From Candidatus Spongiisociaceae bacterium (GTDB lineage Bacteria > Actinomycetota > Acidimicrobiia > Spongiisociales > Spongiisociaceae): a stretch of DNA of 64,000 nucleotides. The notes under the pieces are model-generated. The model did no database searches. It was not told where the DNA came from and saw nothing but the letters and a program-made list of their open reading frames with translations. Each line of letters opens with the position of its first letter. Position 1 is the stretch's first letter. Position numbers and translations under genes: made by a program. The stretch covers positions 1,408,001-1,472,000 of the forward strand of contig OZ253564.1 in NCBI GenBank assembly GCA_965262915.1, written 5' to 3'. Positions 1 to 51,236 of the stretch are shown in pieces.

Positions 1-435
1 GAAGTGGCCGCCGTCGATGAGGTGATGGCCAACTGGGTGGCGATCAAGGCGGCCGGAAAGCCGCTCGGTTCCCTCATGGACGGGGTTCCCGGGTCGCTGC
101 CCGGACTCGAACGGGCGATCGAGCTGCAGCGGCGGGCTGCCCGGGTGGGCTTCGACTGGCCGGACGCCCGTTCGGTGGTGGCCGATGTGGAGGAGGAACT
201 GGAGGAACTGGTCGAGGTCCTCGACAGGCCGGAAGCCGTCCACGAACTTGGAGACCTCCTGTTCGCGGTGGCCAACCTGGCCCGCCATCTGGACATCGAG
301 CCCGAGATGGCGCTGCGCAGGGCGGTCGGGCGCTTCGAGAGCCGCTTCCGCCGCATGGAGGAACTCGACGATCTCGCATCTGTCGACCTCGACCGGCTGG
401 ACACCCTATGGGAGCAGGCCAAGAGCGAGGAGTGA
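1..435 (+). CDS. mazG: MazG nucleoside triphosphate pyrophosphohydrolase, C-terminal part (5' end probably outside window)
   Basis: LQRRAARVGFDW, EEELEEL, ELGDLLFAVANLARH, KF/RFxxRF-type motifs; usual position upstream of eno in Actinobacteria. Confidence 0.9.
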   Translation, partial: EVAAVDEVMANWVAIKAAGKPLGSLMDGVPGSLPGLERAIELQRRAARVGFDWPDARSVVADVEEELEELVEVLDRPEAVHELGDLLFAVANLARHLDIEPEMALRRAVGRFESRFRRMEELDDLASVDLDRLDTLWEQAKSEE

Positions 436-892
436 CCCTTCCGGTGGGCCAGGTAGCGGCCCGACCAGGATGCATGCAGAGAAGGCCACCTCCTCCGTCC
501 CCATCTCCTTCACGTCGCCCCGAGCGATCCACCGGTGCCCTATCGGGCTCCCTCCCCCGCCTCCACCGGTCCGGAGTCAGGTTGCGGATAGGCGCGCAGG
601 CCGGTCCGTGCCCCAAGGATTCGGTCGTCAGCTCGTACTCATTCCGGTTGGCATCAGGCAGGAATGCGGATGGCGTGCCGGGATGAGATTGGTTGGTTAT
701 GGCCGCGGTCCGGACCATTGGCTATGTTTGTGTCATGTGGCGTCTGGTTCAATATGCACTGATTCAGGCGTGGGTTCAACCCCCATCGTGCGGTAGGGCC
801 GGGCGAACCGGTCCATCGAACTTGCTCAACGCCGGGTATGCATCCATCGGGTGAAAGGGAGGTTGCCCGGAATCGGAGGCTTCCCGTGATAG

Positions 893-2193
<1,301 letters not shown>

Positions 2194-2194
<1 letters not shown>

Positions 2195-2589
2195 TGGCCA
2201 AGACCCGCAAGCGGCGGGGTCTCCTCATCCCGCTTCTCCTGGTGGTCGGGTTGGTGGTGGCGGCCGTGGATGTCTTCCCGGTTCGTCAGCTGATCGCCCT
2301 CAACGGCGAGGCGGAGGTGGTGAGAGCCCGGTTGACGGAGATCGAAGGGGAGAACGCCCGGCTGGAACGGGAGATCCAGGCTCTGTACTCCACGTCCGAG
2401 ATCGAGCGTATCGCCAGGGCCGATTTCGGCTACGTTCGCCCCGGCGAGACCAGCTACGTGGTCATCGTGGAGGAAGCGGAGTCCCTGGAGGAGGAGGCCG
2501 AGCCGGTACCGGAACCGCTTCCCGAGTCGGGCGGATTCTGGGAAGCTCTCTGGGACTACCTGACCGGCCGCGACATCATCGATGGATGA
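2194..2589 (+). CDS. ftsB: Septum formation initiator, FtsB/DivIC family
   Basis: N-terminal TM, coiled coil, IERIARADFGYVRPGE motif; coupled to eno. Confidence 0.88.
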
Positions 2590-3103
2590 CCGCGAGATCG
2601 TCGGAGTACAGATCGGACGCCCTTCACGAGCGGCGATCGAGACGCGGTCCCGCTGCCATCTCTCGCTCCCGGTCGTGGTCCAGGTGCCCCCGGTACTCGA
2701 GGACGGTACTCCCTTCCCCACCCTCTACTGGCTCACCTGCCCCCTGGCGGTCCGGCGCGTCAGCCGGCTCGAGAGCGGGGGCGGCGTCAAGTCGATGGAC
2801 CGACGGGCGGCCCGAGTTCCCGAGTTCAGGGCTGGGTTGGAGGCTGCCCACGCCCGCTACGCCGCCCAGCGAGAGAAGCTGCTGCCGCCGGACGCCGAAC
2901 TCCGCCCCCATGGCGGTGTGGCCGGGGCCGCCGCCGGAGTCAAGTGCCTCCACGCCCACTACGCTGACACCCGGGCCGGCAACCCCAACCCGGTCGGAGA
3001 ACTGGTAGCTCCCTGGGTGGAACCCCTTGACTGCGCGGCTCCGTGCGTGATCGATCGGGACGGCGGAGCCGTCAAGAACCCACAATGGACCGAGCCTCGC
3101 TAG
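2582..3103 (+). CDS. DUF501 family protein
   Basis: GTPFPTLYWLTCP and VKCLHAHYA motifs; conserved eno-ftsB-DUF501 order. Confidence 0.9.
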   Translation: MDDREIVGVQIGRPSRAAIETRSRCHLSLPVVVQVPPVLEDGTPFPTLYWLTCPLAVRRVSRLESGGGVKSMDRRAARVPEFRAGLEAAHARYAAQREKLLPPDAELRPHGGVAGAAAGVKCLHAHYADTRAGNPNPVGELVAPWVEPLDCAAPCVIDRDGGAVKNPQWTEPR

Positions 3104-3159
3104 CGCCGACCCCCGATTCATTGGCCCCCGGGCCGACCCGATGCGAGAATACGACCACT

Positions 3160-3244
3160 GCCCGGGTGACGGAATTGGTAGTCGTGGCGGACTTAAACTC
3201 CGCTGCCCCTAAGGGGCGTGTGGGTTCGAATCCCACCCCGGGTA
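3160..3244 (+). tRNA. tRNA-Leu (anticodon TAA, bldA-type)
   Basis: Cloverleaf: GCCCGGG/CCCGGGT acceptor, GCGGA-CTTAAAC-TCCGC anticodon arm, long variable arm, GTGGG-TTCGAAT-CCCAC T arm; no encoded CCA. Confidence 0.95.
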
Positions 3245-3408
3245 CTGGGTTCCCAGCGTTTCTGTTGGTTCTTACCTGTTTCAGAACTACTTAAAGGGCC
3301 TGGTCACAGCTATGTTCTGCAAGCTTCCGATCCGCCCGGTGACGGCTGGTCGTGCTGTGTCAAGTGTTCCTTGACTTTCCGCTCCGTTCCGGGTAGTTTC
3401 ATCGTACT

Positions 3409-3428
3409 GTGGGATATATAGTGGGATA
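3409..3428 (+). promoter_or_regulatory. Putative integrase arm-type binding repeats
   Basis: GTGGGATA direct repeat at 3409 and 3421 just upstream of the P4-type integrase. Confidence 0.5.
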
Positions 3429-3442
3429 CCAGGGAGAGGGAA

Positions 3443-4594
3443 TTGCCGAAGTTGACAGCCGCGTTCGTACGATCAGTCACCAAGGCGGGCAAGTACGGCG
3501 ACCAGCACGGCCTGATCCTCCGCGTCCAGCCGTCGGGTTCCAAGCAGTGGATATGGCGAGGAACGGTGGGAGGGAAGCGACGGGATTTGGGGTTGGGTGG
3601 CTACCCGTACGTGAGTTTGGCCGAAGCACGGGCTAAAGCGTTCGAGTACCGCAAGACGGCCCGGGGGGGCAACGACCCCGCCAGGCTACGCTCAGACGGA
3701 GTGCCGACTTTCTCGACCGCGGCCGAAGCTGTGATCGCCCTGTATGCGGGCAAGTGGAAGCCGGGCGGAAAATCCGAAGGGCAGTGGCGTTCCAGCTTGG
3801 CCACCTACGTTGTGCCGGTGATCGGCTCCAAGGGGGTGGATGAGATCACGACTGCGGATGTTATGGCCTGTTTGGCGCCGATCTGGACCACCAAAGCGGA
3901 GACAGCGAAACGGGTGCGTCAGCGGATCAGCGCGATCATGAAGTGGGCGATTGCTGAGGGTCACCGTTCCGACAACCCGGCAGGCGATGCGGTGGTAGCG
4001 GCGTTGCCGAAACAGAACGGCGGCGGGAAGAAGCATCATCGTGCGTTGCCGCACCGCCAGGTTGGCCACGCGTTGGTGAAGGTGCGGGAGTCTTCTGGGG
4101 TTTGTGCGACGGTTCGGTTGGCGTTCGAGTTTTTGGTGTTAACGGCGGCCCGGTCGGCGGAGGTGAGGGGTACGGTCTGGTCGGAGATAGATCTTGATAC
4201 CGGGACTTGGGTGATTCCTGGTGGGCGGATGAAGGCATCCCGCGAGCACAGGGTTCCTTTGTCGGGGAGGGCGGTTGGGGTGCTGGCCGATGCCCGCCGC
4301 TATTCGGATGGCAGCAGTTGGGTGTTCCCGGCGAAATCGGGTGGGGAGATCCCGTCGTGGGTTCTTACCAAACTGCCTATACGGCTTGGTCTGGGGGGCA
4401 CTTTGCATGGGATGAGAAGCTCGTTTCGGGATTGGTGTGGTGAGACAGGTGTTGCCCGTGAGGTGGCGGAGGCGTGTTTGGCGCATCGGGTGGGCTCAGC
4501 CGCGGAGCAGGCGTACGCTCGGAGTGATTTGTTGGAACGGCGCCGCCGACTCATGGAAGCCTGGGCCCAGTACGTCACCGGCGCCCGAACCTGA
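3443..4594 (+). CDS. P4-like tyrosine integrase with arm-DNA-binding domain
   Basis: GLILRVQPSGSKQW and LGLGGYPYVSLAEAR N-terminus; catalytic TAARSAE, MKA, HGMRSSF, LAH, AY. Confidence 0.95.
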   Translation: MPKLTAAFVRSVTKAGKYGDQHGLILRVQPSGSKQWIWRGTVGGKRRDLGLGGYPYVSLAEARAKAFEYRKTARGGNDPARLRSDGVPTFSTAAEAVIALYAGKWKPGGKSEGQWRSSLATYVVPVIGSKGVDEITTADVMACLAPIWTTKAETAKRVRQRISAIMKWAIAEGHRSDNPAGDAVVAALPKQNGGGKKHHRALPHRQVGHALVKVRESSGVCATVRLAFEFLVLTAARSAEVRGTVWSEIDLDTGTWVIPGGRMKASREHRVPLSGRAVGVLADARRYSDGSSWVFPAKSGGEIPSWVLTKLPIRLGLGGTLHGMRSSFRDWCGETGVAREVAEACLAHRVGSAAEQAYARSDLLERRRRLMEAWAQYVTGART

Positions 4595-5277
4595 CCGGAG
4601 TCTTCGACACCGCCGCTACTGGTGGGTGGCCGCGACTCTGTTGACCCACTTTCCCATGGGTGTGGGAGGTCTGGGAGGACGCTGGCCGGGCCGCATAACT
4701 CAACCCGCTCCAAGGGGATCATCAACGAACGGGGGAGACCATGTCGGGTTGGTGGTCGCAAAGGTATGTCCGCGAACCCTTCCAGCTTCGACCCCGGCCG
4801 GAACCTCCCCGGACACAAGACGTAGGCGGCCTCACTGCGTCGCTGGTATCGGACCTGGCCGGGCATAGCAGGGTCGAGACCACCCAGCTATGCAGCCTGC
4901 CAACCGCCGCTGACGAGGCCCGCGTGGTCATAGTCGTCCTCGATTGGCTGTGAGAACACCGGCAGGAAGCATCGGCCCGTTAGCGCACCGCAACGGACTC
5001 ACCCGGTGAGCGTCGCGCACCCGGTCGGTGGTCTCGCTGCCGGCCGCCCCCGCCGCCGTGGTGGTGGAGGAAGATGGAGCGTTGTCGGTTGTGGTCCCTC
5101 CGGCGACGTTGTAGCCGCTGTGTTGGTGGAGGGGGTGGTCGCCGGGGTGATGCGCAGTTCGCCCTGGGGCGTGTCGACAACGATGGACTCCGGCCTTTCG
5201 GGTGCCGGGTCGCCCGCCCCGCAGGTTGTGAGGGTACACGGCTAGGGCGAGGACGCTCAGCGGCCTCGGCCGGGTGG

Positions 5278-5633: not shown

Positions 5634-6296
5634 TTATAGGGACAGCGCGAGGGCGGGGGCCTGGGGGTGGTGGTGGTCGGGGTCGAGCAGCGAAGCGGCT
5701 CCGAGCACCCGCTCTAGCGGCAGCCCGGTGAGGGACGCGGCTGCGGCGGCCAACTCCATCCGGGCGGCCGGGTCTGGTTCGGCGGAGATTATCTGGTGGG
5801 CGGCGGTGAGTTTGCGGCGGCGGGCCTCGAAGCTGCCCGACCCCCGGTAGCCTGCCAGCGTCGACACCAGGCGTGCCTCGGACAGCGGCATCGCTGATCG
5901 GGCGGCGGCCACAGCGGCCTCCCGAGTGAGGCTGGAGGTGTCGACCGCAGGGGTCTGAGCGACGTACAGATCGAGGTGGTGGTCACCGGGGTTGCTGTCG
6001 AGGAGTTGGCGGGTTGCCCCGTCGTCGGGGGTGAGAACCACAGCCCGGTCGCAGTACCTCGACAGGGTGGTCACCTGGTCGGCTGTCATGTGCGGGCCGC
6101 ACGGAGCTACCGTGTTAGCCAGCCCGACCCGGTGGTAGGCGACCACCGTCGGATACCCCGACACCACCACAGCGGTGGCTTGGCGGGCGATCAGCGAGCG
6201 GGCCTGGCCGAACCCGAACAACGCCCGGCCCCCGTGGCGGGGGTGCTCCACAAGATCGGTGGCGTCGCGGACCAGCGCCGCCGCCTCAGAACCCAT
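5634..6296 (-). CDS. Degenerate DnaG-like protein (Toprim-like plus C-terminal helical domain)
   Basis: LFGFGQAR, AVVVSGYPTV, NTVAPCG resemble DnaG Toprim; purine-rich RBS before ATG 6296. Confidence 0.6.
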   Translation of the reverse strand: MGSEAAALVRDATDLVEHPRHGGRALFGFGQARSLIARQATAVVVSGYPTVVAYHRVGLANTVAPCGPHMTADQVTTLSRYCDRAVVLTPDDGATRQLLDSNPGDHHLDLYVAQTPAVDTSSLTREAAVAAARSAMPLSEARLVSTLAGYRGSGSFEARRRKLTAAHQIISAEPDPAARMELAAAAASLTGLPLERVLGAASLLDPDHHHPQAPALALSL

Positions 6297-16468: not shown

Positions 16469-16719
16469 AACGCCATACGTTCAATGCTTTCTCGCTGGTG
16501 TTCGGAGCAATACTGATCCTGGCGGCCGCGTGGAGCGCATTTTCGGGCCAAGGATGGTTGTTCGACATCCCCCACTGGTTGGTGCCCACGGCGGCGATCC
16601 TCGTCGGTGCCGCTCTGATAAGCCCCTTGTTCGCCTCCAAACAGAGCAACAGGGAACACCCCGAAGAGAACGGTGCGGTCGCCCAGTCCCAGGAGACGAA
16701 CAACCCTGCTCCCGGCTAG
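16465..16719 (+). CDS. Small membrane protein coupled to the PspC gene
   Basis: MKRHTFNAFSLVFG start overlapping upstream stop (ATGA); two TMs. Confidence 0.75.
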   Translation: MKRHTFNAFSLVFGAILILAAAWSAFSGQGWLFDIPHWLVPTAAILVGAALISPLFASKQSNREHPEENGAVAQSQETNNPAPG

Positions 16720-17343
16720 GGGTTGCCTGATCATGTGTGCCAAATCGGCGGGTTGTACTTCGTCTAATGGGTTGGGGCGGGTTTGGGTTGCCGGAATATC
16801 TGAACGAGATGTGGTGCGGTTCCAAGATGTGTACCGGCCTTGTTGACGATCATTGAAGCTACCCGGCCTTCCCTGTTAGACGAGGTACCTTCATCCCTAT
16901 TGGCTGGAGACAGTTGGCTGCAACTTCAGTTGATACTGCAAGGCCTTTAGTACCCTGTTGCGGTACTTCTCTTCGGTTGCGGCGAACGGCTCCAAGCTGC
17001 CACCGAACAGTCCAGCTTGGAGCCGCCCCAGTCGGCGCCCGCTTGTTCTGCTTCTGTCTTTATCCGCTCCCAGAGAGGCGGCCCGATGTCGAATACCAGT
17101 TCGTGGTGACATCGCCGATGGGCGGGCACGCCATCGCCGCCTACCAAAACGAAGGCCACACCGTCGAAGACCAGCACCTGGCCCACATACGCCCCGCCCG
17201 ATTCGAGCACATCAACCCCTACAGCACCTACAACCTCAACGTCGAAGCCGTACTCCAACGAATCCAACACCGACCCCTCAAACCTGCCCAACCCATTAGA
17301 CGAAGTACAACCCGCCGATTTGGCACAAATGATCAGCCACCCC
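16719..17343 (+). mobile_element. Tn3-family mini-element (IR family A) with TnpA C-terminal remnant
   Basis: IRs GGGGTTGCCTGATCATGTGTGCCAAATCGGCGGGTTGTACTTCGTCTAATGGG and inverted copy; LAHIRPARFEHINPYSTY TnpA tail. Confidence 0.85.
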
Positions 17344-17536
17344 CCACACCCAACACTCGGTCGGACCTCAAAGCCCACAACCGCACACCCCGGCAGTCAC
17401 CTGAGCTGTCATTGTGTCTAGGCTGTCGAGTCTCGGCGCGGCATCGAAATCGGAACGGCAGACGGTGCGGATGCTTGAGCGATCGGCGGTTTGCTCAAGT
17501 TGATACTCGCAAGCGGTGCTTCCTAGCCTCCCCCAC

Positions 17537-18493
17537 ATGACCGATGATCAGCCCGATCGAAGCCAAATCTGGAATCTGCTGAACTACAAGACCCTGCATG
17601 CGACTGCATCGCTCATGTATCTGCTCCAGGGCATGGAACTGGTCCGAGGGCGGATTCTGCCCACATACAACAGAGTTCCGCCGAACAGCCGCCACGGGGC
17701 AGTCTTTCCGCCGGAACTCTCCTATGTGGATATCCCGCTGGTGGACAACGGTCCGGGCTTCGACCTCAACGAGGTCTTGGGGCGCGAGGGCGAAGCCGAG
17801 CAACTCGCATTCAAAGCCTGGATCGAGGAAACGTACAACATCGTCTGGGAAAGCGATCTACGCAACGTCATGAAAGCGAGCATTGCTGCCAATGACGCGA
17901 TTCGCCCACGAGCCAACCCCTGGGGCGATCTGAGGCACATCAGAAACGATCTCGTGCACCACGCTGGCATCGCGAGCGCCCAAGAGACCGGCAAGTGCAC
18001 TGTCCTCAGATGGTTCGAGCCAGGCGATCCGATGATTCTCACGATGGGTCACGTGCTTGACTTCCTCAACCACATGAACCTCATGAACCTGATGGGCGGG
18101 TTCATATCCGGAGCTGCAGCCAGGTGGTTCGTGTACCCCCAGATGCGCAGCGCACTGGAGGAACGGGAAACCCCCGAAATCGTCTCGCTGCGCATCGTGT
18201 TCATCGGAGCGGACGACGACGGCACCAGCGCCCACGGCATCTGTGTTGCCTTCGACAACGGAGTCTGGGCGAAGACTCCATTCAGGCATCCTGCCAACGG
18301 TACGCCGATACCGGACCGCATGGCATTCATGGAACAAACCCTCGTTGACGACGACGGCAATGTGAGGCTCGCCAACGGAACCACCCTCGACCGACGCGAC
18401 CTGTACCTGTCCGGCATCGCCGTCATGTTCGGCGACGTACCACAAGACGACAAGCCGCCCCTGCCCGGTCCGTGGTTCCAATTCAGAGAATGA
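17537..18493 (+). CDS. Hypothetical protein with HEPN-like RxxxxH motif
   Basis: WGDLRHIRNDLVHH in a helical N-terminal half; long GC3-biased ORF. Confidence 0.6.
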   Translation: MTDDQPDRSQIWNLLNYKTLHATASLMYLLQGMELVRGRILPTYNRVPPNSRHGAVFPPELSYVDIPLVDNGPGFDLNEVLGREGEAEQLAFKAWIEETYNIVWESDLRNVMKASIAANDAIRPRANPWGDLRHIRNDLVHHAGIASAQETGKCTVLRWFEPGDPMILTMGHVLDFLNHMNLMNLMGGFISGAAARWFVYPQMRSALEERETPEIVSLRIVFIGADDDGTSAHGICVAFDNGVWAKTPFRHPANGTPIPDRMAFMEQTLVDDDGNVRLANGTTLDRRDLYLSGIAVMFGDVPQDDKPPLPGPWFQFRE

Positions 18494-18746
18494 ACCCGAT
18501 CACAAGGCTCAAATGTGCCGTCCGTGACATCATGCGGCGACGTGACGCCGGACCGACTCCGGCAGGTCGCCAGGTGCGGCCGAATGCCCGGAAACGCCGG
18601 GAGTTCGTCTACTGGCCCGGTCTCCGCTGACCATCGTTGACTAGCGCTGTGTGGTGTATATCCAAACGTGGCCGGGCGGGTTTATGCACGGCCCGGCTGC
18701 TGGTTTCCGGAAACCGGCTTCTACCTGGGGAGACGCTGCGGGCCCA

Positions 18747-18774
18747 GCTTGTCATGATGTCTTTTATCGGACAT
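18747..18774 (-). other. XerCD dif-like site (degenerate D arm)
   Basis: Minus strand ATGTCCGATAA-AAGACA-TCATGACAAGC (11-6-11). Confidence 0.65.
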
Positions 18775-19018
18775 CACGTTCCCCCGCCGGTGTCCGCCCC
18801 GTTGGTCTTGGTAGCCGGCTACCGGGCTGCACGCTGCGCTGCATCAACGGACTACCCCTCCGCTGGAGGGGCTCAAGAGAGTGTTAGGCAGGCCGGGCGA
18901 CCTATGACAGCCGGCCACAGTTCCCCGTCCAGATCCTCGCCCAGTGTGGGTGATGTCCCGGATTCGGCGTGTGGCTGCCCGGCGGCGGTGAGGAAGCGTT
19001 TGCCCCAATCAGGCGTGT

Positions 19019-19687
19019 TTAGAGCCAGACCTCCACACCGCCCGAGAACGCTGAATCATGTAGTGTCAGTACCGCTCCAGTTCCATCTCGCGGGAAGCTT
19101 TCGGGAACATCGAAGGGCACTATCGCCTCAAAGCTCAGTCCCGGATTTAGGTCCTCTAAGGCGGTGCCGCTCCAGGTAAAAGAGGCAGCATCATATGTAG
19201 CTGCGCCTAATGTGAGTTTTTGATTACCTGCGAAGAAGGACTGCGCTTCGTCGCTGACATTCGTTACCTTTATCCGAGCAATAAGCCACGTACCGAGTGC
19301 CTCATCCTCTAGCCCTCCAGACCCGAGGATCTTGCCTGGCTGTTCTACATCGATAACAACAAACTCAAACTTGCCGTCCCGTACCGGGTCGCCGATGCTC
19401 GCTCGCTTAGGGGGAGGCTTAGTAGTCGTTGTAGTTGTTGTGGCGATGCGCGTCGTCGTAGTAGTCGTTGCCTCGGAACGAGGTTGAGCACTAGTTGGGG
19501 ACTGATTGCTCCCGGTGTCGCTACCGACGATGCTACCAACGATGAGAACACCAAAGGAAGCGGCCACAATCAACAGAGCACGCGACCGCGGGATCCGCAG
19601 CGCCTTGATCGGGTAGATGACGTTGACAAGGCCGAGAAGGAACGATAACAACCCCAGTAGGACGAGAAGAGTGCCTAAAGTGTCCAA
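19019..19687 (-). CDS. DUF4352-like membrane-anchored protein
   Basis: TMs, Thr-rich linker, IGDPVRDGKFEFVV...LNPGLS...FDVP...LHDSAFSGG. Confidence 0.85.
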   Translation of the reverse strand: MDTLGTLLVLLGLLSFLLGLVNVIYPIKALRIPRSRALLIVAASFGVLIVGSIVGSDTGSNQSPTSAQPRSEATTTTTTRIATTTTTTTKPPPKRASIGDPVRDGKFEFVVIDVEQPGKILGSGGLEDEALGTWLIARIKVTNVSDEAQSFFAGNQKLTLGAATYDAASFTWSGTALEDLNPGLSFEAIVPFDVPESFPRDGTGAVLTLHDSAFSGGVEVWL

Positions 19688-19949
19688 CTTAATCTCCCAT
19701 CCTTCAAGAACCTAACTCCTTTAGGGGTGCCAGCCTGCTCGGAGTCGCTTCAGGTCCCTTTAAGGGTTGAACCCTAGCTCCGGAGCCGTCCCGACCTCGC
19801 TGGGGTCTGTGTCAGGAAGCTGTCCTCAACGCGGGGCGCTACCCAAGTTAACAAAGTCGGGTCTTCCCCGGACAGGAGGGGTGCCATAGGTCCCCGTCCC
19901 AGGTCCCTCCCCCCGACGCCTTCTCCGGAGGCTGATGCCGGGTAGGCCG

Positions 19950-19977
19950 TTGTCCGATAATAGATATTATGTAAACC
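19950..19977 (+). other. XerCD dif-like site
   Basis: TTGTCCGATAA-TAGATA-TTATGTAAACC fits the 11-6-11 dif pattern (CGATAA C arm, TTATGT D arm). Confidence 0.85.
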
Positions 19978-20159
19978 TGCGCCCGTGGTGTTTCCCCAGG
20001 TAGATGGCGGTTTCCGGCAGTAGGCGGCCGGTGACGTGCATAACACGGTCGAATATGCGGCGGTTAATACCGGTCGACGATGGTCAGCAGAGACCGGGCT
20101 GGTAGAGGAGCTCCCGGCGGGTACGGTTAACCCCCTATGAGCAGAGTCCGGCCCCCAGG

Positions 20160-20445
20160 GCGCCCACCACCCACATATCCTCCCGGCCGCCACTGCGCCA
20201 GCGACAGCTGCGCGGCGCGTCTGTCCATTTACAACCCGACCGACCACTGCGGCCTCCACTCCCTCCGACACCCACTCAAACGGAGCCGCCGAGGCTGGTG
20301 AGAGCATCGGGCGGGTAGCCGCTGTCGGCGGCGGGTCGAGCCTCCCGAGCCCTTTCAGAGGTTGGGAGTACCCCAGTAGGTAGGAGGGGCCGTTACGTGA
20401 GAGGAGACGGGCCCGAGGTTCCCGGGCCCAGAACGCTGCTCTACC
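20160..20445 (-). repeat. ~280-bp non-coding repeat, copy 2
   Basis: Reverse-complement homolog of 12126-12403. Confidence 0.85.
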
Positions 20446-20518
20446 CGCGGGCTCGCCGGATGCGGGACATCATCGACCACCACTCCCGATCCGCCGCCAG
20501 CGTGTCTTTATCTACCAG

Positions 20519-20593
20519 CACCCCAGCCGAGGCCCTCACCGAACACCTAGACTCCCTCCAACAAGGCACTGTTGCAACGACCCCTTGAACCTG
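20519..20593 (+). mobile_element. IS30 end remnant
   Basis: TPAEALTEHLDSLQQGTVATTP and TGTTGCAACGACCCCTTGAACCTGG match the IS30 end at 10335-10410. Confidence 0.8.
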
Positions 20594-21312
20594 GTGAGAC
20601 CACACCAACCGACCCCAGCCCCCAGCGGAAGGGTGCTCCGCTGCCGCCACCCGGCGACAGCCATGGAACCGGGTTCCCCAGCCCGTCGTGGCGGCTGTGG
20701 CCCAGCATGTCGCCGTCTGCGTTCTCGAGGGGGTTTCGGGCGGAAACACCCCAAAACCCGCCGTCAGAACGCTAACCACCATAACCCAAAGGCCTAGAAG
20801 CCGTTTTGGGGGCCGGGAGAACCCCGCCACGACCTAGGAGGCCTGACCGCTCCGGTTTCCACGTGTCAGCTGGTGCAGCCTGCGAGCGAGCTACGAGCCT
20901 AGGGGGTCCGTCCCCAACCGCCGACGGACAGCTGCGCCGCCGAATCCGGGGGCAACCCACCCGCCGCCGGCGACGACCCCGACGGGGGGCTATGACGCTG
21001 GCTGTCCTGAGAACGCCCGGCCTGCCTGACTCCCCTCCAGCGGAAGGGAAGTCCCCTGCCGCCGCCCAGCGAATTGCCAGGTAACCGGTTCCCCTACGTC
21101 GTGGCAGTTGGGGGGACGGGGGGTTTCAGGTTGCTACTACGGAATTCCTGGTTACGAAATGCCGGCGCCTTACCGAAGGTTGTGGGTCGCCTCGGTGCGG
21201 AACAGATGCACGAGGGTTACGGCAATCTGGACCGCTGCTTCGGCCCAGGCTGCTTTACAAGGGCCAGTTGGGGCAGCGCTGCGAGTCGGCAGCGATTCTC
21301 TTGCAGGATCAA

Positions 21313-21824: not shown

Positions 21825-22267
21825 GGCCCTGCGCGGAAATGTGGGTTGGGTGGGTTGAAATCCTTGGATTGGGGGTGAGGCCTCGCTGGAATCGGTGAAT
21901 AGCGAAGTCGCCGAATCCAGGAGAGGCCTCGATGTCTGATCTTATGTCTGTTCGTCTGCACCTGTCGGGTGTTCGCGTGAGGGGAGTGCCGGTGGACACG
22001 GTTGACCGCCTCGAGGTCGAAGTCGCATCGGCTCGGGAGTGGTCGCGGTGCCGCCATTGTGGGTTCCGCTGCTTTCGGGTGTGGGACCGGAGGACGAAGC
22101 GGGTTCGTGACCTGGGGGTGAGCGGCCGTCGCGCCACCCTGGTTTGGCGTCGTCGCCGGTTCTGCTGTGGGAACTGCGGGGAACGCCACCTCGAGGACCA
22201 CGACCAGTTCGGGCGGTGGCCCGCCATCCATGGGGTTGGCTGGCATCGGATCATGCGCCTGGTGAGA
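21825..22267 (+). pseudogene. ISL3-family left end and transposase zinc-finger remnant
   Basis: GGCCCT end; CRHCG...RVRDL...RRRRFCCGNC; truncated at a Tn3 IR. Confidence 0.8.
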
Positions 22268-22313
22268 GGGGGGTGGCTGATCATTTGTGCCAAATCGGCG
22301 GGTTGTACTTCGG

Positions 22314-22665
22314 CTAATGGGTTGGGGCAGGTTTGAGGGGTCGGTGTTGGATTCGTTGGAGTACGGCTTCGACGTTGAGGTTGTAGGTGCTGTAGGGGTT
22401 GATGTGGTCGAATCGGGCGGGGCTTATGTGGGCCAGGGACCGTATGGGGGGCCTCCACCGGGTGGGGAACGAACCCGGGGTAGGGCAGGCCGGTCAACCT
22501 CAACCGCCTTGGGCTAGGCGGGTTACCGGATTGCGATGCGACCGCAGCCAACGGATGTCCTCGAGATCGAGATAGAAATAGGCAGCCAGGTCGCTGTGTG
22601 CAACATCATCGGGCCCGCAAGTCGAGGGCTCGCTGTTCCGGTTCGGGGATGACCGAGGTCGGCAT
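22314..22665 (-). pseudogene. tnpA: Tn3 TnpA, N-terminus fused to C-terminus by a large deletion
   Basis: DLAAYFYLDLEDIRWLRSHRNPVTRLA (DUF4158-like) next to HISPARFDHINPYSTY tail. Confidence 0.75.
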
Positions 22666-22687: not shown

Positions 22688-23563
22688 TTACTGGTCGATC
22701 AGTATCGATTCGACAGCATCGGCTCGGTCGGTGTCCGACGGGAGGCTGTAGCGTCGGGTCGTGTCCAGGCGGCGATGCCCGGCGAGTTCTGCAATAAGCA
22801 CGACATCGGCTCCCGAGCGAACCAGGTTCGTGACGAACGTGTGACGAAGCACATGCCCGGACAACCCCTCAAGAGCCGTGTCAGCCGCGATCCGTTCGAT
22901 GATGTGGCCGACAGCCCGAACCGACAGACGGGTACCTAGACGCGAGAGCCACAACGCATCCGCAACGAGCCCCTTGAGATCGCAGAGACCCGCCCGCGCA
23001 TCCAACCAGTTCTCAAGCATTGGCCGACATGCCGAGTTGAGCGGCACCTTCCGGTACCGGTCTCCTTTACCCGACCGCACCGTGACCATCCCTTTGCGGG
23101 CGGTGATCGCCACATCCGTTACCACCAGAGCCGCCAACTCCGACAGGCGAAGACCCGTATACAGCATGAGGGTGACGATGGCCCGGTCCCTCACCGAAGG
23201 GAGACGCTCCACTGCACGTATCAGCTTCCGCTGGTCCGTGTGGTCCAACGCCCGGGGCGCTACCTGAGGGATCTGTTCGCGGGCCACGTCGGGGCGGCCC
23301 ATCTGTCGGGAACGGTAGAAGTTGTCGATAGCAGCCAAGGCTTGGTTGACCGTCGCCGCAGACCAGCGCTTCTGCACCTTCATCTGTCGCTTGTAGTCCC
23401 GCACCGCCCAGTCACGCCGATCGTGCTGCGTCAAAGCAGCCTCAGGATCCCCAGTATCGGCGAGCCATCTCAGATACGAGCCCACCTGCGCCCTGTACGC
23501 TTGGCGGGAACGGGAGGCCAACGGCTGGCGGTCAAGCCACACCGTGTAGGTCTCAAAGGCCAT
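22688..23563 (-). CDS. TnpI/XerC-like tyrosine recombinase
   Basis: RDRAIVTLMLYTGLRLSEL, GKG, HVLRHTF, LAGH, TTRRY. Confidence 0.92.
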   Translation of the reverse strand: MAFETYTVWLDRQPLASRSRQAYRAQVGSYLRWLADTGDPEAALTQHDRRDWAVRDYKRQMKVQKRWSAATVNQALAAIDNFYRSRQMGRPDVAREQIPQVAPRALDHTDQRKLIRAVERLPSVRDRAIVTLMLYTGLRLSELAALVVTDVAITARKGMVTVRSGKGDRYRKVPLNSACRPMLENWLDARAGLCDLKGLVADALWLSRLGTRLSVRAVGHIIERIAADTALEGLSGHVLRHTFVTNLVRSGADVVLIAELAGHRRLDTTRRYSLPSDTDRADAVESILIDQ

Positions 23564-23603
23564 CCCGGCCAGCGTTCCGGCCTCCACACCCGCCCCTTCC
23601 CTG

Positions 23604-23701
23604 TTAGACGAAGTACGTTCGGGGTGTTTCCAGCACTTCCCGAACGGGTTAGACGAAGTAGCGGCGTATTGTACTGCGTCTAACAAGTATTAGACGAAGA
23701 A
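23604..23701. other. Internal resolution site (core inverted repeat plus two direct repeats)
   Basis: TTAGACGAAGTA at 23604 and 23649; core TACTGCGTCTAA-CAAGTA-TTAGACGAAGAA at 23672-23701. Confidence 0.85.
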
Positions 23702-24745: not shown

Positions 24746-24907
24746 ACAACCTATATGCTGTCAACCCCATAACCCCTAAGTCGCGGTGACACCCCCAGCC
24801 GCATTAGACGAAAACGCAAAATCGGACTTAGCGCCGATGCTCACCCAACCCAACCCATTAGACGAAGTACAACCCGCCGATTTGGCACACATGATCAGGC
24901 AACCCCG

Positions 24908-38667: not shown

Positions 38668-38695
38668 GCTTTACATAACCTGTATTATGGGACAT
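38668..38695 (-). other. XerCD dif-like site
   Basis: Minus strand ATGTCCCATAA-TACAGG-TTATGTAAAGC; partial duplicate TTACATAGCCTGT at 38651. Confidence 0.8.
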
Positions 38696-50657: not shown

Positions 50658-51236
50658 TGAGCCTCACCGGGTTTCACGCAGGCTGTTTGTTGTGAGTCTC
50701 AGCCTGGTTGGGGGCGCAGCTCCCCGTCCCGGCGGCTGCGGGCCGATCGGCGTTCGGGTTCCCGTTCCCGCCGTTTGTGCTCGCAAGGAGACAGACGGGG
50801 CGATCGGCAACTCAGCACAAATCGGCTCGACCCCATAGGCCTTTCGGTGATCGTCGATGAAGGTGGTCATCTCCGGGGTCGGCGGTCGAACACCTCTGCC
50901 TGGGCGAAATACGCAGACGCCTAACCCAAGATCTCATTCGCCCGCCGCAGCTCCCGGCGCAAGGCTCTGAGCCGCTCCCGCTCTGGACAGCTCAACCCAG
51001 GCCGCAGACCCTGATCCGTCTCAGCACGCCGAACCCATTTGCGTAGCGTCTCCGACGAACACCCGAACTTCTCCGCTCCCGAACAGATAGCCGCCCACCC
51101 AGAACGGTGCTCCCCCCGATGCTCTGACACCATCCGGACAGCACGCTCCCGCACCTCCGGCGAATACATCATCAGTCTTCCCATGACTCCATTATCTCCC
51201 AACTAATCGAGTCTCCGGAAAACCCGGTACGGTTCA
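50658..51236 (-). mobile_element. Internally deleted IS3-family element
   Basis: Left end and orfA nearly the same as 9343-9850; other end TGAGCCTCACCGGGTTTC. Confidence 0.85.

Follow-up and report, generated by a model that had tools for sequence, protein, structure and literature searches.

Paired dif-like sites with a conserved accessory arm border a single-gene module in an actinobacterial genomic island

In a 64,000-nucleotide (nt) stretch of the chromosome of a Candidatus Spongiisociaceae bacterium (genome positions 1,408,001 to 1,472,000; here, the window), a single DUF4352-like gene lies between two inverted 28-bp sites that resemble the chromosomal recombination site dif. Both belong to a family, here class 1, in which the dif-like core is accompanied on the side of its XerD-type arm by a conserved accessory arm. 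On balance, we favor the view that this family consists of genus-restricted Xer-type sites bordering small exchangeable modules in mobile islands, with XerC-side cargo. That the cores act as recombination points is best supported by the footprint of a crossover in one of the two sites at the locus, a footprint that does not itself identify the enzyme.

Results

The window comes from a single-contig genome of 5,055,038 bp with 64.4% GC content (G000), which we compared with seven congeners (G001 to G007) and 21 further genomes of the family. The left site occupies window positions 18747 to 18774 on the minus strand and, read from XerC to XerD arm, has the sequence ATGTCCGATAA-AAGACA-TCATGACAAGC (position weight matrix [PWM] score, 44.9); the right site occupies positions 19950 to 19977 on the plus strand and reads TTGTCCGATAA-TAGATA-TTATGTAAACC (PWM score, 48.6). 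Each has an 11-6-11 layout, and the two are inverted, with their XerC-type arms pointing inward. A degenerate form of the site pattern, allowing up to two mismatches, had three matches in the window, where 0.00 are expected, and no match in any of 100 dinucleotide-preserving shuffles of the window. An earlier reading of the window's sequence (here, the original prediction) had proposed just such a pair of sites, C arms inward, around one DUF4352-like gene, and both sites were found where it had placed them.

The interior of the module spans 18775 to 19949 (1,175 bp), ends in a XerC arm on each side, and corresponds to a "C module" in the terms used for Acinetobacter. Its only convincing gene is the DUF4352 gene (19019 to 19687, minus strand), and no recombinase gene lies inside. 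The 222-amino-acid (aa) product matches Pfam DUF4352 (E = 2.4e-11; 44.4 bits against a cutoff of 25.9) and phrog_806 (E = 9.6e-15), and its N-terminal membrane helix, Thr-rich linker, and DUF4352 domain predict a membrane-anchored surface protein. The kilobase containing the module has a GC content of 56.6%, by which the cargo looks foreign to the genome, and the interior was not found in 25 relatives apart from a short internal repeat.

The original prediction also described an imperfect inverted repeat of about 95 bp continuing outward from the cores. The outward homology is real, but it is longer, extending about 190 to 225 bp. A repeat search recovered it in two blocks (18693 to 18773 with 19951 to 20031, 81 nt at 77% identity; 18588 to 18641 with 20073 to 20126, 54 nt at 83% identity), and pairwise alignment of 18560 to 18800 with the reverse complement of 19925 to 20165 gave a mean column identity of 80% over about 240 columns. 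These outward sequences are the accessory arms, both on the XerD side: a "long" variant at the left site (18547 to 18746, minus strand; nhmmer profile match at genome positions 1426547 to 1426783, 229.9 bits) and a "short" variant at the right site (19978 to 20116, plus strand; 1427942 to 1428164, 203 bits). The left arm carries the invariant TCCCCAGGTAGA, followed in order by GGTTT, GTGCATAA, CACG, and ATAT blocks. On the XerC side of the right site, a conserved "type A" flank of about 35 to 39 nt containing CTCCGGAG occupies 19911 to 19949 (plus strand), and the sequence from this flank through the arm (19911 to 20116) aligns with genome positions 1386530 to 1386328.

Scanning the whole genome with the two sites of the locus returned 12 related 28-mers. 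By weight matrix, the genome holds 11 class-1 sites (scores of 38.5 to 48.8) and 4 sites of a second type, class 2 (22 to 33), while the best unrelated match, a repeat borne by an insertion sequence (IS), scores 17.4. The class-1 sites are dispersed along the chromosome from 0.31 to 2.89 Mb. Ten of the 11 carry an arm of about 170 bp on the side of the XerD arm, and the eleventh (514424) retains only its first ~60 nt. We compared conserved blocks across 16 units from five genomes. The conserved block in the XerC-type arm is TGTCCGATAA; the 15-mer GTTTCCCCAGGTAGA begins 13 nt past the XerD-type arm and is invariant at 13 of its 15 positions; and the GGTTT, GTGCATAA, CACG, and ATAT blocks recur farther out. 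The genome contains 15 copies of the 12-mer TCCCCAGGTAGA, where 0.65 would be expected; 12 of these are within units, and the other 3 are isolated chance matches. The accessory DNA that the original prediction associated with the core is thus a conserved arm shared by a multicopy family.

Two other roles for the arm were considered and rejected. A structured RNA was dismissed because RNAalifold over the 16 units predicted 0 pairs and Rfam returned nothing at gathering score (its single match, at E = 0.48, is at chance level). A promoter or terminator was dismissed because neither sigma-70-like promoters nor terminators were found in the arm and because the cargo is oriented either way relative to it. 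Given these results, we read the arm as putative protein-binding DNA.

Cargo differs from site to site on the XerC side. In pairwise comparisons of 16-kb contexts, homology between units starts at -2 to -39 relative to the XerC arm and runs 166 to 230 nt into the XerD side, often continuing into a segment of 230 to 410 bp with a small open reading frame (ORF). For many pairs of units, identity is at the random level (0.15 to 0.38) in the 40 nt before the core and 0.7 to 1.0 in the 30 nt after it. Nine different XerC-side contexts are found among the 11 class-1 sites, and cassettes occur at related loci and in related genomes, which bears out the suggestion that the unit brackets other cargo. 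This cargo encodes, in addition to DUF4352, a 266-aa membrane protein with Cys/His repeats, a PLD-like protein, DUF6338 and DUF169 proteins, and membrane proteins of 334 and 346 aa that belong to no family. A 35-nt XerC-side flank is common to a subset of cassettes from three genomes whose cargo is otherwise different, and no conserved element body extends beyond the accessory arm.

The modules also differ in arrangement. Single-gene cassettes between direct repeats are found at 514424/515812 in G000, with the 266-aa Cys/His membrane protein, and at positions 6222/7798 of locus L016 in G001, with the 346-aa protein; integration of a circular cassette beside a resident site would give this structure. 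A module of about 3 kb in G000 (1480823/1483852) has its XerD arms and both accessory arms facing inward. Cargo also seems to have moved between species. G005 (two copies; locus L011, 707 to 1429) and G006 (locus L010) have a DUF169 gene beside class-1 sites; its protein is 98% identical to that of a G000 gene (3671845 to 3672567), whereas the core gene neighboring it is 74% identical. This disparity indicates that the DUF169 cargo was probably transferred recently between species. At two loci in G000 (508227 to 513089, which is 227 to 5089 of locus L017, and about 1254069 to 1260206), a 1,620-aa MobF relaxase-primase fusion is encoded beside class-1 sites, which suggests integrated conjugative elements.

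The module is present twice in G000, and comparison of the copies reveals where an exchange took place. Window positions 17343 to 20116 recur in inverted orientation at genome positions 1,263,492 to 1,260,717, a 2.8-kb segment with 98.7% identity whose left end (17343) abuts an ISL3 fragment. The copies differ at 11 of 1,217 positions in the region of a 325-aa gene to the left of the module, at 0 of 187 in the left arm, at 0 of 28 in the left core, and at 8 of 1,175 in the module interior. The right core has three differences in 28 positions, two in the spacer (19963 and 19965) and one in the XerD arm (19976), with none in the XerC arm, and the right arm differs at 14 of 139 positions. Divergence therefore rises abruptly, from about 0.7% to 10%, once the right-site spacer is reached (Fisher P = 8e-13). 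Past 20116 the copies are unrelated: the locus continues with the small ORF of 54 aa, and the second copy with another block and a MobF relaxase gene. From the step in divergence and the unrelated DNA that follows, the near-identical segment ends within the right-site spacer, and the same module is joined to two different arms in its two genomic copies. A past crossover lay in this spacer, which is where Xer-type exchange would put it.

Neither site of the locus is the chromosomal dif, because the class-2 core is single copy in four relatives and keeps the same gene neighborhood. We searched four complete or near-complete congeners with a pattern covering class-1 and class-2 sites; a reversed-pattern control gave 0 matches. 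In each of G002, G004, G005, and G006, the class-2 core, ATGTCC[C/T]ATAA-N5G-TTATGTAAAG, was the sole full-pattern site of its type. These sites are armless, have unrelated flanks, and lie 125, 168, 407, and 553 kb from the antipode of dnaA, and G004 (2.8 Mb) has no class-1 site at all. Genes beside the relatives' dif map in G000 to 2.285 to 2.297 Mb and 2.3546 to 2.357 Mb. They bracket a class-2 site at 2,308,072 to 2,308,099, whose 28-mer is identical to that of G002. The ancestral chromosomal dif of G000 is this core, about 880 kb from the locus (1.427 Mb), and so the concern that the original prediction had merely found the sole chromosomal dif does not apply. The right site matches the 2,308,072 core at 20 of 28 positions (9 of 11 in each arm and 2 of 6 in the spacer) and the left site at 19 of 28 (10 of 11 in the XerC arm, 7 of 11 in the XerD arm, and 2 of 6 in the spacer). 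Sites of both classes also resemble the dif proposed for Frankia alni in one report (PMC3025954).

In G000, dnaA is at 0.405 Mb and the cumulative GC skew reaches its maximum at 2.85 to 2.88 Mb after a plateau that starts at 2.3 Mb. This flat stretch of skew spans about 0.55 Mb, from the ancestral dif to the maximum at 2.854 Mb, and about 46 kb of extra DNA separates the dif from its conserved XerC-side neighbors. From the skew, a class-1 site at 2,894,293 was first taken as the true dif, and it was rejected in favor of the class-2 core after comparison with the relatives. We also rejected the idea that 2,308,072 to 2,850,963 is a 543-kb replicon integrated at dif, since the XerC-side neighbors of the relatives' sites map to 2.355 Mb and not beyond 2.851 Mb. 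Skewed 8-mers gave a best bias of 0.73, too weak for use in locating the terminus. G000 has four class-2 cores (window positions 38668 to 38695 on the minus strand, and genome positions 2308072, 2850963, and 4016099), compared with one in each of the four relatives. The four have 20 to 30 nt in common on the XerC side, two share about 215 nt, and the copy at 2,850,963, which lies 3 kb from the GC skew maximum, bears a class-1 accessory arm. The copy in the window is armless, reads ATGTCCCATAA-TACAGG-TTATGTAAAGC, and is inverted relative to the right class-1 site. A naive search for dif in this genus picks the wrong site 11 times.

To map the distribution of the family, we combined several searches. 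Among 41 genomes queried by blastn with a single unit, 7 had matches, including 4 of the seven congeners. A sequence-only profile built from 15 units and applied to 29 genomes gave 14 matches in G000 (10 full, 1 hybrid, and 3 partial), 5 in G001, 2 each in G005 and G006, 1 in G002 (with a 7-nt spacer), and 1 partial match in G007. Beyond the genus, it gave one partial match, in a single genome of another genus among the 21 family genomes; G003, G004, and 20 other family genomes had none. In all, 7 of the 29 genomes have any match, copy number ranges from 0 to 5 in the seven congeners, and the class-1 family is genus restricted, with almost no matches beyond it. Sites in G005 and G006 are 125 to 350 kb from dnaA, far from the terminus. 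In three genomes, class-1 pairs in direct orientation lie on both sides of dnaA, 97 to 350 kb away (G000, 308105 and 514424/515812 around dnaA at 404878; G005, 354524 and 760599 around 479575; G006, 3133298 and 3741449 around 3391929), and we could not tell whether this reflects chance or a large integrated element.

Public collections were scanned with patterns that required exact motifs, which divergent relatives would escape. These patterns found three stretches in public genome contigs, one of them lacking a recognizable core, and four metagenomic contigs, all repeats of loci already in the set; exact-motif patterns had 0 matches in viral contigs and 0 in 72,556 plasmid records. Metagenomic contigs from Logan span the left site in the reference arrangement; no joint between 18760 and 19963 was present among those listed, and contigs of this kind cannot show its absence. 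Loose contig ends at 19944 and 19951 may derive from other genomic copies.

Discussion

Xer-dependent gene shuffling is documented in Gammaproteobacteria, as dif modules in Acinetobacter and as integrative mobile elements exploiting Xer (IMEX) in Vibrio, and IMEX are also known in Neisseria. The mechanism by which modules with inverted sites move is still unsettled. Our literature search, of a limited full-text collection with chosen terms, returned papers on Acinetobacter, Vibrio, Legionellales, and Xer in general, and none on actinobacterial dif modules or IMEX. Within that literature, nothing contradicts the original prediction, which knew of no such system described in this lineage.

The closest architecture is that of the Acinetobacter dif modules. 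One account describes C and D modules whose bordering pdif sites are in inverse orientation, and rearrangement between sites with identical or near-identical spacers (PMC13141974). As in Acinetobacter, 28-bp XerC-spacer-XerD sites lie in inverse orientation around small recombinase-free modules; both C and D configurations are present (18747/19950 and 1480823/1483852, respectively); there are many sites per replicon, with varied spacers and diverse, often single-gene cargo; and the 11-6-11 sites resemble the dif of the host chromosome. The locus has the arrangement that defines a C module. Unlike the Acinetobacter modules, which vary on both sides and have no accessory DNA, the sites described here have a constant XerD-side arm of about 170 bp, and the XerD arm is the less conserved half. 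The host is actinobacterial, the sites are spread through chromosomal islands over 2.6 Mb, there are no regular alternating C/D arrays and no Rep_3/OrfX plasmid, and the movement proposed here is read from sequence comparison.

Other Xer-dependent systems share some of these features. Like IMEX (CTXphi, TLCphi, and the gonococcal island), the modules have dif-like borders and no integrase of their own, and the direct-repeat loci in G000 and G001 look like mini-IMEX insertions by a resident site. In contrast to IMEX, the locus is 880 kb from the chromosomal dif (1.427 versus 2.308 Mb), its sites are inverted rather than direct, it has no phage genes and no exact-motif match in viral contigs, and no named family could be linked to the small ORF beside the arm. 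For TLCphi, a factor on the element's side has been reported to act on XerD (PMC6744903, PMC9226527). The original prediction had also likened the flanking DNA to the accessory sequences of cer and psi. The likeness holds insofar as a Xer core is conserved together with about 150 to 200 bp of accessory DNA, and it fails in placement. Accessory sequences of cer and psi adjoin the XerC arm, and these sites, on plasmids, are active only in direct repeat, whereas the arm here is on the XerD side and the sites are multicopy, chromosomal, and found in both orientations. Accessory DNA of cer and psi is described as binding PepA with ArgR or ArcA (bioRxiv 10.64898/2026.02.23.706985). Integron cassettes offer a further parallel, in that promoter-poor single-gene cassettes lie beside a constant platform and a short cassette-side flank recurs with different cargo. 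Unlike integrons, the system has no integron integrase, no attC-type folded site, no consensus secondary structure, and no long arrays.

How might these units work? A unit comprises the 28-bp core, the XerD-side arm of about 170 bp and, in a subset, the 35-nt XerC-side flank, and the DUF4352 locus would be one such module, with its 1,175 bp between inward XerC arms and two outward-facing accessory arms. The genome encodes two full-length Xer recombinases (331 and 285 bits against the NF001399 cutoff of 279), and this host XerC/XerD pair is the presumptive catalyst. The two genes occupy genome positions 2402673 to 2403542 and 2013458 to 2014300. An accessory factor controlling the reaction may bind the invariant motif that lies 13 nt from the XerD arm. 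As for the inverted arrangement, recombination or inversion between sites is a more likely origin than insertion of the single gene.

A bolder version of this model, which we offer tentatively and regard as possible rather than probable, is that the host's dimer-resolution enzymes carry out cassette exchange at many places in the chromosome, sites near the origin included. Core and arm would form a constant platform at which a factor bound to the 15-mer replaces activation of XerD by FtsK, and recombinase-free single-gene cassettes would be accepted, swapped, and inverted there. If true, gene capture would have a third route in addition to integrons and the dif modules of Acinetobacter. With a second, unrelated lineage, the hijacking of dimer resolution for cassette exchange would prove a more general phenomenon, and the arm with its presumed binding factor would give a handle on what licenses Xer recombination away from the terminus.

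Several observations weigh against our preferred interpretation. The original prediction of a gene-capture system of the dif-module type is supported by the varied XerC-side cargo and by the crossover in the spacer, but the XerD side always carries the same arm, so that only the XerC side acts as variable cargo. The two copies of the module share 1.4 kb of left-hand context and show exchange at the right junction only, so that mobility of the one-gene module as a unit is a supposition. The two spacers of the module, AAGACA and TAGATA, are unlike at two of six positions. Arms without a core occur too, as relics. The XerD-type arm is more variable than the accessory arm adjoining it (in one example, XerD arms with 45 to 55% identity are followed by flanks that are 100% identical over their first 30 nt), which is unusual for a XerD-dependent site; a factor bound to the arm could compensate for weak XerD binding, or another protein could use that half-site. 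Tyrosine recombinase genes are frequent in the same islands. Taken together, the original reading was partly supported, its central observation being both confirmed and enlarged. The class-1 sites appear to be genuine, genus-restricted Xer-type recombination sites bordering exchangeable cargo, at which XerC and XerD would act with the help of the arm.

The most serious competitor to host XerC/XerD is a dedicated tyrosine recombinase of the islands. One candidate is a Xer-like enzyme of 332 aa encoded 2.7 kb from the right site (22688 to 23686, minus strand), which has a Phage_integrase domain (Pfam, 1.7e-33) and SAM-like N-terminal domains and scores 140 bits against TIGR02224, far below the cutoff; another is the multicopy integrase IntA, of which about 12 genes or fragments lie 3 to 13 kb from most class-1 sites of G000, with further fragments near sites in G001 and G006. 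The units would then be att sites, with the 170-bp arm and 35-nt flank as arm-type binding sites, and the likeness to dif would stem from Xer-like ancestry; at about 230 bp, flank, core, and arm together are as complex as arm-bearing att sites. Nonetheless, we consider this explanation unlikely. The 332-aa enzyme is near only 1 of the 11 sites; besides it there are one full paralogue and a single fragment. No conserved element body is found after the arm. We rejected IntA as the dedicated recombinase because it is unlinked to the units in G005, where it lies at 2.56 and 2.80 Mb and the units at 0.35 and 0.76 Mb, and in G006, which has two units and no IntA match at E = 1e-20.

Less probable again is that the units are multimer-resolution sites, akin to cer and psi, of plasmids or integrative and conjugative elements that entered the chromosome, the modules being by-products of integration and rearrangement. 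All of the sites do lie in island-like DNA with IS elements and integrases, the arm is about as long as the accessory sequences of cer and psi, and the MobF relaxase-primase gene is 1.3 kb from the site at 514424, with an 88% identical copy beside 1260856. But the arm is on the XerD and not the XerC side, the plasmid records gave no exact-motif match, and 11 sites on a chromosome, direct-repeat cassettes, and a spacer crossover exceed what resolution needs. A last explanation, an inert inverted duplication produced by IS activity and homologous recombination and resembling dif by chance, would suit a genome rich in IS copies and repeats and a 2.8-kb segment that starts at an ISL3 fragment. We disfavor it as very improbable, given that no shuffled window reproduced the core pattern, that core and arm with their invariant blocks are kept across five species between unrelated flanks, and that the step in divergence falls inside the spacer.

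Other features of the window

The original prediction placed the locus in an island of actinobacterial type, and both parts of that description hold. G000 has four WhiB genes, and among 14 control genomes the same model matches Corynebacterium only; on this basis the organism is assigned to the Actinobacteriota. Island DNA makes up most of the window, with integrases, GmrSD, a methylase with a GHKL ATPase, a RelA/SpoT-domain protein, and IS fragments. A tRNA-Leu gene (3160 to 3245) is followed by a P4-type integrase gene with Arm-DNA-bind_3, Phage_int_M, and Phage_integrase domains, and the island containing the locus probably has its left border at this pair (3160 to 4594).

On the XerD side of the left site, within the duplicated segment, the ORF of 325 aa (17516 to 18493, plus strand) has no match in Pfam, NCBIfam, or PHROG. 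Beyond the right arm, a small ORF of 54 aa with a C-x4-C...C-x2-H pattern (20137 to 20301, plus strand) likewise matches nothing in these three collections. It has one homologue in a set of 5.8 billion proteins and a language-model similarity of 0.94 to 0.95 to small hypothetical proteins of phages and Actinomycetota. The segment of about 230 to 410 bp that contains this ORF is repeated 12 times in G000, 4 times in G001, twice in G007, and once in G002; as it is lacking in G005 and G006, which do have units, it is a frequent neighbor rather than an obligatory part.

Several repeats surround the locus. R140, of about 140 to 170 bp, lies inside the module (18815 to 18987, plus strand) and again at 20917 to 21088. 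It contains palindromes (for example, CCCCTCCGCTGGAGGGG) and has at least 12 copies in the genome, often close to class-1 units and to segments with the small ORF. Copies are present in G001 and G007 too, and Rfam gave no match. ISL3-family transposase fragments and short repeats with 92 to 98% identity occur at 16719 to 17345, 21825 to 22437, and 24843 to 24906. Two ALIL pseudoknots (Rfam RF01497; 9672 to 9788, plus strand, 103 bits; 50796 to 50915, minus strand, 84 bits) are IS3-type frameshift signals. Finally, an 80-bp repeat at 20516 to 20601, beside the 54-aa ORF, with more than 25 copies at 87 to 97% identity, matches the 3' end of IS30-family transposase genes elsewhere in the genome and is thus a solo IS end.

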